Assembly (NCBI GenBank): GCA_050745445.1 | Contig: JBOGJN010000212.1 | Span: 1 to 50,147, forward strand | DNA from: Thermoanaerobaculia bacterium | GTDB taxonomy: Bacteria > Acidobacteriota > Thermoanaerobaculia > UBA5066 > Gp7-AA6 | DNA length: 50,147 nucleotides | Direction: 5' to 3' | Shown here: piece after piece, positions 20,797 to 26,235 of the stretch | Layout: each line of letters opens with the position of its first letter | Numbering within the stretch: the first letter of the stretch is position 1 | Notes under the pieces: generated by a model | What the model saw: only the letters and a program-made list of their open reading frames with translations | Told to the model about the DNA's origin: nothing | Databases searched by the model: none | Translations under genes and position numbers: made by a program

Positions 20797-20874
20797 GAGG
20801 ACGTAGGAGGTAGGACGTGGGAGGTAGGGTTTGTCTGTCGTCCCTACCTCCTACCACCTACGTCCCACGTCCTC
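20797..20874. repeat. Imperfect inverted repeat built of NNGTAGG heptamers (GAGG ACGTAGG AGGTAGG ACGTGGG AGGTAGG G ... CCCTACC TCCTACC ACCTACG TCCCACG TCCTC)
   Basis: 33-nt arms at 20797..20829 and 20842..20874, 28/33 complementary by eye. Lies in the divergent intergenic region. It is the same unit family as 46355..46432. Confidence 0.8.
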
Positions 20875-22277
20875 GTCTTCAGAAGGAGGTTCCTCTGCGG
20901 CAGGAAAGCGACAGCCTCGGCGTTCGGGAGATTCCAGACGACGCCTATTGGGGCGCGCAGACCTCGCGCGCCGTCGAGAACTACGCCATCTCGGGGGAAC
21001 GGGCGCATCCCGAGGTCGTCTTCGCCTATGCCCGAATCAAGAAGGCCTGCGCGGAGACAAACGGAGATCTCGGACGCCTTCCCGCCGAGAAGGTCCGCGC
21101 GATCGTTCAGACCTGCGACGAGATCCTGGACGGGCGACACCTCGAGCAATTCGTCGTGGATGTCTATCAGGCGGGCGCCGGAACCTCCTTTCACATGAAC
21201 GTCAACGAGGTGATCGCGGGGCGTGCGGCCGAGATCCTGGGCTCTTCTCGCGGTGACCGGTCACGGGTCAACCCGAATGACGATGTGAACCTCGGCCAGT
21301 CCACCAACGACACGTTCCCGGCCGCGCTGCACATGGCGGCGATCGCCGTGGGGCGGCGGCTTTCGGCCGATCTGGGCAGGCTCGCCGGCGCGTTCCGGCG
21401 CAAGGGGGAGCAGTTTGCGGGAATCGTCAAGTCGGGGCGGACACACCTGATGGACGCCGTCCCGGTCACTCTTGGCCAGGAGTTCCGCGCCTTCGCGGCT
21501 GCCCTGGAGCACCGCCGGCAGGCTCTCGACCGCTCCCTGGACGGCCTGCGCGAGCTTCCACTGGGGGGCACCGCGGCCGGCACGGGTCTGAACACCCCGC
21601 GCGGGTTTCGTGAAAAGGCGATTGCGCGCCTGGCCGAAATGACCGGAGAGGCGTTCGCCCCGATCCCCGATGCGCGGGAAGGCCTCCAGAGCCGGGCGGC
21701 GGCGGGCGATTACTCGGCCGCGCTGCGCGGCTTCGCCGTGGAGCTCTCGCGGATCGCCAACGACCTGCGGCTGCTGTCTTCCGGCCCCGCCACCGGACTC
21801 GAGGAGATCCGGCTTCCGGCCGTGCAGCCCGGCTCCTCCATCATGCCGGGCAAGGTGAATCCCTCGCTGCTCGAGTGCCTGAACATGCTTTGCTTTCAAC
21901 TGGTCGGCATGGACACGGCGAACATGCTCGCCGTCGGAGCGGGACAGCTCGAGTTGAACGTGATGATGCCGCTTCTGGCCTACAATTTGACGCGGGGGCC
22001 GCAGCTCTTTCTGAACTTTCTTCCGATCTTGCGGGAGAAGTGCGTGGAAGGCATCACGGCCAACCCGGAGAAGTGCCGGCATTATCTGGAGGAGTCGCCT
22101 TCGGTGGTAACGGCGCTCACGCCCCGGATCGGCTATGCGAAGGCGGCGGAGGTCTTCAAAGAAGCCGTGGCTCGCGGGGTCCGCGTCCGGACCGTGCTTC
22201 TTGAGAAGAAGATCCTGACGGAGAAGGAACTGGATGCCGCCCTGACCCCCGAGGCGCTGCTCGGGCCTCTGGAGTGA
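20817..22277 (+). CDS. aspA: Aspartate ammonia-lyase (aspartase/fumarase superfamily)
   Basis: VDVYQAGAGTSFHMNVNEV, GRTHLMDAVPVTLGQEFRAF and LPAVQPGSSIMPGKVNP resemble AspA more than FumC. The start is uncertain. The track start is a GTG inside the hairpin at 20817, and a CTG at 20895 sits 5 nt after GAAGGAGG. Confidence 0.88.
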   Translation: MGGRVCLSSLPPTTYVPRPRLQKEVPLRQESDSLGVREIPDDAYWGAQTSRAVENYAISGERAHPEVVFAYARIKKACAETNGDLGRLPAEKVRAIVQTCDEILDGRHLEQFVVDVYQAGAGTSFHMNVNEVIAGRAAEILGSSRGDRSRVNPNDDVNLGQSTNDTFPAALHMAAIAVGRRLSADLGRLAGAFRRKGEQFAGIVKSGRTHLMDAVPVTLGQEFRAFAAALEHRRQALDRSLDGLRELPLGGTAAGTGLNTPRGFREKAIARLAEMTGEAFAPIPDAREGLQSRAAAGDYSAALRGFAVELSRIANDLRLLSSGPATGLEEIRLPAVQPGSSIMPGKVNPSLLECLNMLCFQLVGMDTANMLAVGAGQLELNVMMPLLAYNLTRGPQLFLNFLPILREKCVEGITANPEKCRHYLEESPSVVTALTPRIGYAKAAEVFKEAVARGVRVRTVLLEKKILTEKELDAALTPEALLGPLE

Positions 22278-22340
22278 GAGAATCGACCGCTTGGTGGGAG
22301 TCATGGACCATTCTTCGTTGGAAGCCTTAGGAGGAGCGAA

Positions 22341-23054
22341 ATGACCTGGCCTCAAGACTGGCAAACGAACCTCTTGTTTTTTCTCCGGTGGGGTCACTTC
22401 CTGGCGGGGATCACGTGGATCGGCCTGCTCTACTTTTTCAACCTGGTCAACGTGAACTTCATGAAGGAGCTCGACGCGGCGACGAAAGGGAAGGTCGTCC
22501 CGAACCTGATGCCCAAGGCTCTCTGGTGGTTTCGGTGGGGCGCGGTGTTTACGGTTCTGACCGGGCTCGTCTACTACGCGATCCTGCTAAACACCGAGAA
22601 GATCGACGCGAAGCTCGGCCTCGTGCTGGCCGCCTGGATCGTGGCCTGGCTGATCGTGGCCGCTCTCCTTCGGATGTCCGTCGCGGGCGGCCCCTTGAAG
22701 GACGGCCGCGTGCTCGGCGTCGTGATCGCGATCCTGGTGCTCCTCGTGGCGTGGGTCGTGGTTTCGAACATGCGCGCCGGCGGGAGCAACCGGACCGCGG
22801 CGATCGGCGTGGGAGGAGGTCTCGGCATCGTCATGTTCATGAACGTTTGGATGATCATCTGGCCGCTTCAGAAGAAGATCATCGCCGCGACCAAGGCCAC
22901 GGCCGAGTCGGGCGCGGCGGCGCCGGCCGACCAGCCGAAGTGGGCGCGCCGGGCGTTTCTGGCCTCGCGCACGAACACCTGGCTCTCGGTCCCGATGCTT
23001 TTCTTCATGGGAGCGGCCAGTCACTTTCCCATCTTCGGCAGCGTCCCGCAGTAG
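22341..23054 (+). CDS. Polytopic membrane protein, urate-hydroxylase PuuD N-terminal-like family (no cytochrome c domain)
   Basis: AGGAGG SD 6-7 nt upstream. LRWGHFLAGITWIGLLYFFNLVN resembles my recollection of the Urate_ox_N membrane domain. About 5-6 predicted TM helices. Confidence 0.7.
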   Translation: MTWPQDWQTNLLFFLRWGHFLAGITWIGLLYFFNLVNVNFMKELDAATKGKVVPNLMPKALWWFRWGAVFTVLTGLVYYAILLNTEKIDAKLGLVLAAWIVAWLIVAALLRMSVAGGPLKDGRVLGVVIAILVLLVAWVVVSNMRAGGSNRTAAIGVGGGLGIVMFMNVWMIIWPLQKKIIAATKATAESGAAAPADQPKWARRAFLASRTNTWLSVPMLFFMGAASHFPIFGSVPQ

Positions 23055-23090
23055 AAGAGTCGTCAGGTCTCGGCCTTCCGCCAGAATGAA

Positions 23091-23118
23091 GGGGGCGGCC
23101 CTCGCGGTCGCCCTTTCC
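23091..23118 (+). terminator. Candidate intrinsic terminator after the plus-strand membrane-protein gene
   Basis: GGGCGGCC-ctcgc-GGTCGCCC stem (8 bp including one G-U pair) followed by TTTCC. The T-tract is weak. Confidence 0.3.
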
Positions 23119-23170
23119 GGCTTCTCCGCTCGTTGATCCTTGCGGCACTTCGGTGAAAACGAGGTCTGTC

Positions 23171-23205
23171 TGAGCTGACAGCTGAGAGCTGACGGCTGAG
23201 AGCTA
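23171..23205. repeat. One-armed tandem heptamer array (T)GAGCTGA CAGCTGA GAGCTGA CGGCTGA GAGCTA
   Basis: Five NAGCTGA units read directly. No complementary arm was found nearby. The last unit contains the UDG stop codon (23203-23205). Confidence 0.7.
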
Positions 23206-24942
23206 TTTCCCTGCGAGATAGTCCCGCACGAGCTTCATGTCCTCCCAGACGTCCTTCTTGCGCTCCGGAGAGCGCAACAAGAAGGCAGTGTGGAAGGTCG
23301 GCATGACCCGCACGCCGCGGGCCGTTCGCCAGTGGCCGCGCAGCCTCCCGATGGTGTCGTCGGTCTCGAGGATGACCTGCGCCGCGAAGGTGCCGAGCGT
23401 CACGATCACCTTGGGCGAGATCAGCCGGATCTGTTCTTCCAGGAAGGGGCGGCAGGCGGCCACCTCCTCCGGCTCCGGATCGCGGTTGTTGGGCGGGCGG
23501 CAGTTATGGACCACTCCGCCGGAGGTGACGAAGTTGTGAGTGTCTTCGACGTCGATACAGAAGAACGTCGTGTCCGTTCGGACGCGTTCCGTGACGTCCT
23601 TCACGTCGGCCTCCTCATAGAGAACCTCCGGAGCCTCTCGCCGCAGCCGGGATGGGTCGAAGGGCACCCGAACCGCGGTTTCAGGATGAAGCTTGTACCG
23701 CATCGACGGCGGCACGTAAGGGGCGATGCGCTCGGCCAGCCTCCGCGTCGTCGAGACATCGAAGTACAAGCGTCCACGCGCGGCCTTGGCAGGCAGCCCG
23801 ACTCGAGCAAGTTCCCCCAACAGGATCTCGAGATCGGACTGTATGAAGCCGCAGGTTGCGATCTCGGCGAGCGGCTGACGCGGCGGCCGAATCCGCGTAT
23901 ATCCGTCGTCCATAAACCACACCGCTAGCATGCGATCGTTCAATCTGCCAACGATGGAGAGCGGAACGCGCTTCTTCGGCCGGTAAAACTCCCGGCGAAG
24001 AATACCGAGCGCCCGATGCGCCAGGGTACGCACGTGGATGACCGGATAGGATTTCGCCCCTCCAACTACGGCCGCCACGGAAAGCGTTTGAATCCGAGGA
24101 TGGAGTTCTTCCAGGAGGTCCGCTTTGAAAGCGGCGTAGTCGGCCTGTGCGGCGGAATGGCCGAAGCAAAGGTACGCAGTACGTGCGCTGAGATGGCCGT
24201 CCCCGAGGAGCGTCCCCCAGACGATGTCGCGAGCCAATGGACTCAAGCCCTGGCCTGTCGCGATACGGGCGCCGGGCTCGAGGCGCTCGACCAATACGTA
24301 ACCCTGGTCGGTGAGAACCGGATGATCACCCGTCAACTCGATTCCGACTCGGCCCAGTCCGGCGCGCTTGGCGGACCGATATGTCAGGCTAAAGACGCGA
24401 CGCCGCCCGAGCGGCGTCGCGTGCCAGCCGACGACCCGTCGGGGAATGATCCGGCCCGCAGCATCGACAGACATGACAGTCCCGCCATACCGGCGGCGGA
24501 CCAGACGGCCGATGCGCTCCCATGAACCGTCGCCAAGCTGTACGGGCGCGTTGTACCTGAGACACTTGATTACATTCGCAATAAAGACATCCTCCCGCTT
24601 TCTCCCCATCGCCTCGATGATCTTGGTCAAGAGCTGGCCGGCGCGGCCGACGAAGGCCAGTCCCTGCTCATCCTCGTCTCGTCCCGGCGCCTCCCCCACG
24701 AACATCAGCTCGGCCTTCGGGTTTCCTTGACCGAAGACGATGTTCGTTCTCCCCTTCGAAAGCTTGCAGCGAGGGCAACCGGCGATGAATTTCTGGAGTG
24801 ATGTCAGATCTGACATAGATCCGGGCACAAGCGCGGGAACCCCGGAGACCGCGGGCCGGAGGAACATCTCGGTGACTCCCAGGTCGCGGAAGAACTCGAG
24901 CTGCTCGGTGAGTGGATGCGAAGGCTTCATCACGCCCCTCAC
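23203..24942 (-). CDS. Family-4 uracil-DNA glycosylase interrupted by an intein (precursor 579 aa, predicted spliced extein 225 aa)
   Basis: Exteins carry [31 protein letters not shown]|CRPPNNRDP and [10 protein letters not shown]. The start is either GTG 24942 or ATG 24930. Confidence 0.9.
23503..24564 (-). mobile_element. Intein (Hint splicing domain with embedded LAGLIDADG-type homing endonuclease), 354 aa in frame
   Basis: Begins [14 protein letters not shown] (Cys1). Block B LTGDHPVL (TxxH). LAGLIDADG-like LLGDGHL and WFMDDGY. C-terminal [21 protein letters not shown] is followed by a +1 Cys (codons checked: GTT=Asn at 23503-23505 minus, GCA=Cys at 23500-23502 minus). Confidence 0.85.
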
Positions 24943-24990
24943 CCTCCCCTTTCCCGGCGGCAGAGGGGAAGCCGCCAGTCGGCCGGAAGC

Positions 24991-26235
24991 TTACTCCCTC
25001 TCTTGGCGGGAGACCGAAGGAGTCAGGGAGTCGTCACCCCGGCCGGACCGCTTGACGGCGAGAAAGGCGTCCCAGATCTTGTCGGCGACCTCGCGCTTGC
25101 CGCGGCGCGAGACCAGTTCTTTTCCCCCGTCGCGGCGCAGGATCAGGACTTCGTTCTCTTCGGCCTCAAACCCGATTCCCTCCTGACCCACGTCGTTGAC
25201 GACGATCAGGTCGGCGCCCTTGTTCTCCATCTTTCGCCATCCCCTGGCTTCGAGCTCCTCGGTTTCAGCCGCAAAGGCCACGACGGTCTGCCGGCGCACA
25301 AGCGGGCGCAGGCTGGCGAGGATGTCCCGGGCAACCGAGAGGCGCAGGATCCGATCGCCCTCCTCGCGGTGCAGGCGCGTCGGGCTCTCCTCCGGAATAA
25401 AGTCCGCGACCGCCGCCGCCATGGCGAGGCCATCGCACTCGGGGAACTCGCGCAGAAGAAGCGCGTGCAACTCATCAGCCGTTTCGAAGAAGAAGAGCCG
25501 TGCCCCCCGCGGAGCGGTGACGCCTGTGGGACCCGAGAGGAGCGTCACCTGCGCGCCGCGGTCCAATGCGGCCCGCGCGAGCGCGTAGCCCATGCGTCCG
25601 CTCGAGCGGTTTGAAAGAAATCGGACCGGATCGATGAGCTCCCGCGTGGGACCCGCCGTGACCAGGAGACGGAGCCCCTTCAGGTCCCCCCGCCGGCTGG
25701 CACCGGTCGCCAGAGACCAGGTCTCCTCCACAATCGCCTCCGGCTCCGACATGCGTCCCAGGCCCTCGTGCCCCGACGCCAGAGCGCCGCTCTCGGGCCC
25801 GAGAAAGCGGATGCCGGCCGCGGCCAGGGCCTCCCGGTTGCGGGCAACGCCCGCGCTCTTCCACATGGCCGTCTCCATGGATGGCACGAGCAGGACCGGC
25901 CCCCGATGAGCAAGGAAATAGGTCGAAAGAAAATCGTCCGCGAGCCCGTTGGCAAACTTGGCCAGCGTATGCGCCGTTGCGGGGGCGACCAGCAGCAAAT
26001 CCGCCCAATCGGCCAGGGCGACGTGGTCCACTGCGGGGGCGTCTGCACTCCCCCAGACCTCCGTGTGGACGTCGCGCTTGGAGAGGACGGCAAAGGTCAA
26101 GGGAGCAACAAACTGGCGCGCCCCGCGAGTCATGACGACCTGGACTTGCGCGCCCCGTTCGATCAGACGGCGCAGGACTTCGGCCGCCTTATACGCCGCG
26201 ATGCCCCCGCTGACGCCGAGGACGATGTGGAACAT
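24991..26235 (-). CDS. coaBC: Bifunctional phosphopantothenoylcysteine decarboxylase / phosphopantothenate-cysteine ligase
   Basis: N-terminal flavoprotein domain IVLGVSGGIAAYKAAEVLRRL and C-terminal DFP/CoaB domain (LVTAGPTRELIDPVRFLSNRSSGRMG). Confidence 0.95.
   Translation of the reverse strand: MFHIVLGVSGGIAAYKAAEVLRRLIERGAQVQVVMTRGARQFVAPLTFAVLSKRDVHTEVWGSADAPAVDHVALADWADLLLVAPATAHTLAKFANGLADDFLSTYFLAHRGPVLLVPSMETAMWKSAGVARNREALAAAGIRFLGPESGALASGHEGLGRMSEPEAIVEETWSLATGASRRGDLKGLRLLVTAGPTRELIDPVRFLSNRSSGRMGYALARAALDRGAQVTLLSGPTGVTAPRGARLFFFETADELHALLLREFPECDGLAMAAAVADFIPEESPTRLHREEGDRILRLSVARDILASLRPLVRRQTVVAFAAETEELEARGWRKMENKGADLIVVNDVGQEGIGFEAEENEVLILRRDGGKELVSRRGKREVADKIWDAFLAVKRSGRGDDSLTPSVSRQERE

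Follow-up and report, generated by a model that had tools for sequence, protein, structure and literature searches.

A very probable class-1 intein with an I-SceI-type endonuclease domain interrupts a Thermoanaerobaculia family-4 uracil-DNA glycosylase at a conserved, putatively cluster-binding cysteine

Contig JBOGJN010000212.1 of an uncultured soil bacterium of the Thermoanaerobaculia (Acidobacteriota; assembly GCA_050745445.1), analysed here over 50,147 nucleotides and called the window, encodes a uracil-DNA glycosylase (UDG) of family 4 whose reading frame is broken by an in-frame insert of 354 residues. The insert is very probably a splicing-competent class-1 intein with a LAGLIDADG homing-endonuclease domain, placed at the site K/CRPP (a slash marks a splice junction throughout). 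Its anatomy, conserved residues, predicted folds, empty sites, distribution and transfer signature are direct observations.

The udg gene occupies 23203..24942 on the minus strand as a 579-aa open reading frame (ORF), as the ORF check of the window shows and as an earlier reading of this DNA from its letters (the sequence-only reading) had claimed. The insert that this reading placed at 23503-24564 holds with exact coordinates, along with all the motifs it quoted. Its family-4 assignment agrees with the TIGR00758 model UDG_fam4, which matches as two separate stretches (3e-58, 196 bits against a cut-off of 125). The Pfam UDG model matches at 5.5e-36 and is interrupted at profile position 61, and the archaeal equivalog NF040953 stays under its cut-off (192 vs 250). 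The two UDG matches, with those to LAGLIDADG_2 and the intein C-terminal model given below, lie well outside what chance would give. With the insert removed, the 225-aa product aligns gap-free over the junction with Thermus thermophilus UDGA (1UI0, NIVKCRPPQNR; 1.5e-50) and with the Sulfolobus tokodaii enzyme (4ZBX), and its E-values against the solved family-4 UDGs (1UI0, 1VK2 and 4ZBX) lie between 1e-45 and 1e-50. Intein-less orthologues of 225 aa in a large protein database are up to 93% identical and read an uninterrupted NVIKCRPP, so that the clean 354-aa insertion expected from the sequence-only reading is seen against both solved structures and natural empty alleles. The empty alleles carry the DNA sequence TTTATTGCGAAYGTAATCAAG before and TGCCGGCCTCCCAACAACCGC after the insertion point, and within 21 nt on either side of the junction they differ from the reconstructed site of the window by synonymous changes only. 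The close UDG orthologues listed included no intein-bearing proteins, though the extein of P0001 is about 93% identical; this is probably an effect of split-match scoring.

The splicing residues were followed in two alignments, one of 63 precursors (A1) and one of 19 divergent inteins with identity down to 38% (A2). Cys1, Thr78-x-x-His81, His353-Asn354 and the +1 Cys are invariant in both, and block F (CIDVE..NF) is conserved. Cys1 (CLRY...) is also invariant across 80 genome loci; these are the best 80 of at least 183 loci that encode a relative in GTDB species-representative genomes, and the taxa and junction counts given here for genome loci cover these 80. Blocks F and G end in GGVVHN/C, and the intein C-terminal model TIGR01443 scores above its threshold (24.2 bits, cut-off 15.6). 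The class-1 intein features named in the sequence-only reading are thus upheld by their invariance in homologues.

The predicted fold agrees with this anatomy. An AlphaFold2 model built on A1 has a mean pLDDT of 85.7, with low confidence confined to the two junctions and the Cys loop. Among PDB structures compared by Foldseek, PI-SceI has the best E-value (2e-11), and the Mtu RecA mini-intein is matched by the splicing domain (TMt 0.55-0.60, root-mean-square deviation (rmsd) 2.7-3.0 A); the model thereby supports a Hint fold for the splicing domain. Taken together, the two extein halves match solved UDGs with TMt 0.83-0.87, namely those of T. maritima, S. tokodaii and T. thermophilus, the last with TMt 0.87 in a match that spans the insertion. 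The model joins these halves into an intact UDG fold from which the insert protrudes, which would also suit a lineage-specific nuclease or DNA-binding module that is retained by the mature enzyme and is no intein, as would the two intein profiles that fall short of their cut-offs (given below). Such a retained domain is nevertheless highly improbable. The insert has a predicted Hint fold and parts a lysine from a cluster-ligand cysteine in the fold core, the four splicing positions are invariant among copies that are only 38-40% identical overall, and the same Hint and endonuclease unit is also found in RecA-like and terminase-like proteins, where it occupies classic intein sites.

The central part of the insert matches Pfam LAGLIDADG_2 (PF03161; 9e-17, 61.9 bits against a cut-off of 25), and the Pfam scan gave no LAGLIDADG_3 match at E<=1 in the window protein. 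A PDB sequence search also gives I-WcaI as a match to this domain. In the Foldseek comparison the predicted core superimposes on I-WcaI (6X1J) with TMt 0.70 and an rmsd of 3.0 A and on I-SceI with TMt 0.65-0.69; through these matches the model has the pseudo-dimeric alpha-beta-beta-alpha-beta-beta-alpha fold. The LAGLIDADG endonuclease of the sequence-only reading is therefore recovered by both profile and structure. Both acidic motif residues, D122 and D220, are present in the window copy and in nearly all of the 80 loci, D220 being replaced by Asn in two UDG-PolA copies of A2. We take D122 and D220 to be the counterparts of the catalytic Asp44 and Asp145 of I-SceI. Because of the invariant splicing residues, the motifs and the predicted-fold matches, the insert is best classed as a standard class-1 intein with an I-SceI-type endonuclease.

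The intein and its host gene have different histories. Within the Acidobacteriota, identity is 88% for the exteins and 70% for the inteins; the intein thus changes more quickly than the gene that hosts it. Between phyla the inteins are about 65% identical and the exteins 45-51%, the intein being the more similar part in 944 of 944 cross-phylum pairs, although the loci compared were picked by intein similarity; this is contrary to the expectation for vertical descent. Among Acidobacteriota pairs, dS is about 1.8-2.2 for the intein, more than twice the extein value of 0.82. The dN/dS values are 0.12 (endonuclease domain), 0.13 (splicing domain) and 0.08 (extein), and all these figures are rough. 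By these ratios both intein domains are under purifying selection. Since the inteins outmatch the exteins in every cross-phylum pair and both domains show such selection, the element looks mobile. Its endonuclease is likely active in homing at present, which the sporadic distribution, the empty sites, the cross-phylum identities and the purifying selection support indirectly.

The endonuclease could instead be inactive or domesticated in an intein that still splices and is now only inherited vertically in this lineage. Several Acidobacteriota species carry the intein at the same locus, some relatives have lost motif residues (the two D220N copies and the degenerate domain of P0143, described below), and a transfer vector was not found among plasmids, cultured phages or viral contigs, all of which would fit. 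This alternative is unlikely, however, given that the window copy and almost every one of the 80 loci keep both acidic residues, that the endonuclease domain has a low dN/dS, that orthologues 93% identical have empty sites, and that the intein exceeds the extein in identity across phyla and in dS for the same genome pairs.

An active homing element is also consistent with the range of states found at the locus. A decayed copy sits at the same site in the uncultured Acidobacteriota metagenome-assembled genome (MAG) MFD04944.bin.1.105 (L009:3001-4181); it has in-frame stops, is longer than the intact intein (393 codons), reads AWST/CRPP and lacks the His-Asn terminus, and the udg of this genome is probably a pseudogene. 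The UDG intein of the 557-aa protein P0143 has intact splicing termini and an Ala/Gly-rich endonuclease region in which both LAGLIDADG acidic residues are gone, and it looks like an intein en route to a mini-intein. Empty sites, intact copies, the decayed copy and the copy with a degenerate endonuclease together make up the expected stages of a homing cycle.

The +1 cysteine appears to have a second role in the host. Family-4 UDGs bind a [4Fe-4S] cluster through four conserved cysteines (PMC5295032; PMC4787834). Exactly four cysteines occur in the spliced extein, at its residues 56, 59, 127 and 143, and they follow the pattern C-x2-C ... C-x15-C; all four are invariant in 63 homologues, and each aligns with one of the four cysteines of 1UI0. 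Because it is one of only four extein cysteines, all aligned with the T. thermophilus enzyme, the +1 Cys is taken as a cluster ligand, and the splicing nucleophile should therefore be a [4Fe-4S] ligand of the UDG; the sequence-only reading had likewise put it in the C-x15-C half of the pattern. The +1 thiol cannot serve splicing and the cluster simultaneously, so splicing presumably precedes cluster insertion. The earlier expectation that repair activity would depend on splicing stands in part. Its link through the cluster is overstated, since Cys-to-Ser mutants of the Pyrococcus furiosus and Archaeoglobus fulgidus enzymes lose only about 40% of their activity (PMC5295032). The need for splicing more plausibly stems from the 354-residue interruption of the fold core.

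A regulatory role has been considered for the same cysteine. In such a scheme splicing is conditional and the intein acts as a post-translational switch that ties UDG maturation to redox state or iron-sulfur availability, since Cys1 and the +1 Cys sit side by side in the precursor where the cluster would bind: early metal or cluster binding, or a disulfide between Cys1 and the +1 Cys, blocks splicing, or splicing gates cluster insertion. The position of the +1 Cys among the four cluster cysteines, the retention of the allele in many species, and the redox- and metal-sensitive splicing documented for the mycobacterial DnaB and SufB inteins (PMC6195587, PMC8891592) speak for it. Any homing element is expected at conserved functional residues, however, and the host does not need the intein, because close relatives carry empty alleles; nor is the cluster essential for family-4 UDG catalysis (PMC5295032). 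Conditional splicing is thus rather improbable, and slightly more doubtful is the specific form in which splicing and cluster insertion exclude each other, redox or iron-sulfur supply gates UDG maturation, and the switch is kept in at least 183 species genomes.

Several points weigh against a splicing-competent, mobile intein in a functional host. PF14890 (23 bits, cut-off 35.8) and TIGR01445 (18.6, cut-off 24.5) both fall below threshold; the scan with intein and endonuclease models proposed in the sequence-only reading was thus positive for LAGLIDADG_2 and TIGR01443 and negative for these two. Pipelines probably do not flag the protein as intein-containing because the models for the N-terminus and the whole splicing domain are sub-threshold. 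The cluster ligands are assigned by alignment and cysteine counting, not from coordinates. The window UDG has motif A (GEAPG) and keeps the His of motif B, with a Thr where Pro is at least 90% conserved in 63 homologues (HTAF vs HPAF); the closest relatives, intein-bearing or intein-less, read FHPAFLLR against FHTAFLLR in the window, and this host enzyme might be impaired, or the Thr may be an assembly error. Choosing the loci by intein similarity may inflate the cross-phylum intein identity, and dS is near saturation (about 2), with the dN/dS figures to be read qualitatively. Plasmids gave no match to the intein, and no transfer vector was identified; cultured phages hold no close copy, only inteins about 28% identical in T5-like DNA polymerases; and viral contigs hold only relatives of at most 35% identity, mostly at RecA-like and terminase-like sites.

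Splicing, DNA cleavage, the target site and the order of cluster insertion are what we infer from this evidence. Translation would yield the 579-aa precursor, in which Cys1 undergoes an N-S acyl shift and the +1 Cys attacks the resulting thioester. Asn354, helped by His353, would then cyclise and free the intein, and an S-N shift would restore a normal peptide bond. The predicted product is a UDG of about 221-225 aa with NVIK-CRPPNNR, and only at this point would the +1 Cys be free to join C56, C59 and C497 as a [4Fe-4S] ligand. The free intein of about 40 kDa is predicted to cut intein-less udg alleles near the junction of TTYATYGCGAAYGTNMTSAAG and TGCCGSCCNCCC, and repair of the cut allele would copy the intein in. 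The element behaves like a selfish piece of mobile DNA which has crossed between bacterial phyla and whose activity is maintained by selection.

The combination of UDG, LAGLIDADG_2 and intein recurs in well over 120 clusters defined at 90% identity, and when the intein alone was searched exhaustively against 50%-identity representatives, 178 of them matched below 1e-30. In ten of ten representatives scanned with Pfam, the host belongs to the UDG superfamily and its match is interrupted at the same profile position; the hosts include stand-alone UDGs, UDG-PolA fusions, a 5'-3' exonuclease-UDG fusion and a SLOG-UDG fusion, with the common junction N-x-x-[KRL] / C-L ... H-N / C-R-[PT] in every class. 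The 80 best GTDB loci are all from MAGs and belong to the Acidobacteriota (Thermoanaerobaculia, as for the source contig), the Actinomycetota (Gaiellaceae, Solirubrobacterales, Conexibacter, Acidimicrobiia) and the Gamma- and Betaproteobacteria (Sulfuricaulis, Acidiferrobacterales, Steroidobacteraceae, Burkholderiales). The K/C-R-P-P site is the same in 80/80, and the termini are intact (VVHN/CRPP) in 79/80.

In three fusions of a UDG domain to a family-A DNA polymerase, P0134, P0138 and P0141 (1400-1680 aa), the same UDG site is occupied by this intein type. The polymerase domain of both P0134 and P0138 holds a second intein, which in P0138 comes with a LAGLIDADG_3 endonuclease. A second intein of the same family as the udg insert was looked for elsewhere in the window and none was found. 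The same type of intein, with Hint and I-SceI-like endonuclease domains, occurs at 22-31% identity in uncultured viral genomes, at RecA/UvsX-like sites (...KIGVMFG/C...HN/SPETT) and at terminase-like sites (...DDLVM/C...HN/C); the viral contigs are L091, L092, L101, L104, L116 and L112, L120, L127, L159. One further viral contig, L089, may carry the intein at the UDG site (/CRPT).

Base composition had been raised as a mark of foreign origin and is rejected as such. Total GC is 63.6% in the insert and 60.3% and 66.7% in the exteins. GC at third codon positions (GC3) is 0.73 in the intein against 0.83 in the exteins, and the 35 genes of the window have 0.80 +/- 0.04 with a minimum of 0.70. The lower insert GC of the sequence-only reading is therefore seen in GC3; total GC equals that of the exteins, and the difference is not significant. 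Composition is unusable as evidence because total GC matches the exteins and GC3 lies within the spread of the window genes.

The longest udg ORF opens with GTG (window 24928-24942), and the intein-less orthologues begin MKPPNPLTEQ. Translation probably starts instead at ATG 24930, the codon of Met5 in the ORF, giving a 575-aa precursor; this start is favoured because the empty-site orthologues start there and a GGAGG-like stretch precedes it, and the choice leaves the intein position unchanged. The NCBI gene model of the contig, P0018 (423 aa, 'uracil-DNA glycosylase family protein', window 23203-24474), starts at Met157 of the full ORF, 30 residues within the intein. It is without the whole N-extein and loses motif A and two of the four cluster cysteines. 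Related proteins carry plain source names such as 'uracil-DNA glycosylase (family 4 / family protein)'. The gene order coaBC, udg, Urate_ox_N-type membrane protein, fumarase is the same in the window, on the contigs of intein-less orthologues and in the closest intein-bearing relative. In the window the block of fumarase/aspartase-like lyase, Urate_ox_N-type membrane protein, udg and coaBC spans 20817-26235, and related Thermoanaerobaculia contigs keep its order in both intein-bearing and intein-less form. The features of the locus are collected in Table 1.

Table 1. Features of the interrupted udg gene in the window; functional labels are predictions.
Feature	Position	Strand	Basis or remark
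Precursor ORF, family-4 uracil-DNA glycosylase + intein	23203..24942	-	579 aa from GTG; ATG 24930 is the probable true start
N-extein, aa 1-126	24565..24942	-	Ends ...ANVIK; carries C56/C59 and motif A
Putative cluster cysteines C56/C59 (CPRC)	24766-24777	-	In N-extein
Motif A GEAPG	24682-24696	-	In N-extein
Intein, class 1 with homing-endonuclease domain, 354 aa	23503..24564	-	ORF aa 127-480, 1062 nt, in frame
Cys1 codon, first splicing nucleophile	24562..24564	-	Invariant in all homologues
Intein block B, T78-x-x-H81	24310..24336	-	LTGDHPVLT; invariant in alignment
I-SceI-like LAGLIDADG endonuclease domain, intein residues ~105-304	23653..24252	-	PF03161, PDB sequence match, Foldseek, dN/dS 0.12
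LAGLIDADG motif 1 GTLLGDGHL, Asp122	24190-24216	-	Motif conservation
LAGLIDADG motif 2 (WFMDDG), Asp220	23899-23928	-	Motif conservation
Intein blocks F and G, ending His-Asn for Asn cyclisation	23503..23568	-	TIGR01443 above cut-off; VVHN/CRPP in 79/80 loci
C-extein, aa 481-579 + stop	23203..23502	-	Begins with +1 Cys
+1 Cys codon, putative third cluster cysteine	23500-23502	-	First of C-extein
Putative fourth cluster cysteine C497	23452-23454	-	In C-extein
Motif B FHTAFLLR	23272-23295	-	In C-extein

Inteins normally insert at conserved functional residues of replication and repair proteins, and in kind the UDG intein is entirely conventional. Full-text searching of the published literature turned up no uracil-DNA glycosylase intein; the papers returned, on subjects such as base editors and phage genomes, were unrelated, and none dealt with a +1 splicing nucleophile that is also an iron-sulfur ligand. 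The most extensive survey of prokaryotic inteins (PMC4760082) makes no mention of UDG in its main text. As far as the searched literature reaches, the UDG host and the K/CRPP site seem previously undescribed, for an allele that is common in metagenomes. So widespread an allele has gone unnoticed because all the carriers seen are uncultured and annotation either calls a plain UDG or starts the gene inside the intein. A family-4 UDG, acting in base-excision repair, and its K/CRPP site are thus added to the intein catalogue, in line with the bias to DNA-metabolism enzymes. For practical use the locus yields a new intein of the Cys1/Cys+1 type together with what is probably a new I-SceI-type endonuclease, whose target of about 40 bp can be predicted from natural occupied and empty alleles. 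It is also a natural case for asking if splicing becomes redox- or metal-responsive when its nucleophile doubles as a cofactor ligand. For soil MAGs it means that UDG counts and gene models at the udg locus can be wrong.

PI-SceI (the yeast VMA1 intein) and the Mtu RecA intein PI-MtuI likewise have Cys1, a block B TxxH, a terminal His-Asn and a +1 Cys. As in the UDG intein, their Hint domain is split by a two-motif LAGLIDADG endonuclease and they lie at a conserved site of a protein of DNA or nucleotide metabolism. The UDG intein differs from both in its host and site, a family-4 UDG at K/CRPP, and in its endonuclease core, which is of the LAGLIDADG_2 (I-SceI) type with no LAGLIDADG_3 match at E<=1; its identity is 10-14% to PI-SceI and 26% to the RecA mini-intein. 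I-SceI and I-WcaI, which are monomeric, intron-encoded members of PF03161, are alike in fold (TMt 0.65-0.70, rmsd about 3 A, about 205 columns). Motif 2, WFMDDG, is identical in the UDG intein and I-SceI, and both catalytic Asp positions are present. Unlike these free-standing group I intron ORFs, the UDG endonuclease is embedded in an intein and has another target site.

The inteins of T5-like phage DNA polymerases (as in Escherichia phage SelmaRatti, 'intein-containing DNA polymerase precursor') and the viral RecA-like and terminase-like inteins align end to end with residues 1-354. They differ in identity (22-35%) and in hosts and sites, and only the viral L089 seems to have a UDG-type CRP junction. 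Among the hosts, T. thermophilus UDGA (1UI0), T. maritima TM0511 (1VK2) and the S. tokodaii enzyme (4ZBX) share motif A GEAPG and the four cysteines with the window UDG. These three enzymes are without an intein, and the window UDG has HTAFLL in place of the HPAFLL of close relatives. We know of no report that the +1 residue of the mycobacterial DnaB or SufB inteins is a cluster ligand. As here, both nucleophiles of the M. smegmatis DnaB and M. tuberculosis SufB inteins are cysteines, and their host proteins are tied to DNA or iron-sulfur metabolism (PMC6195587, PMC8891592).

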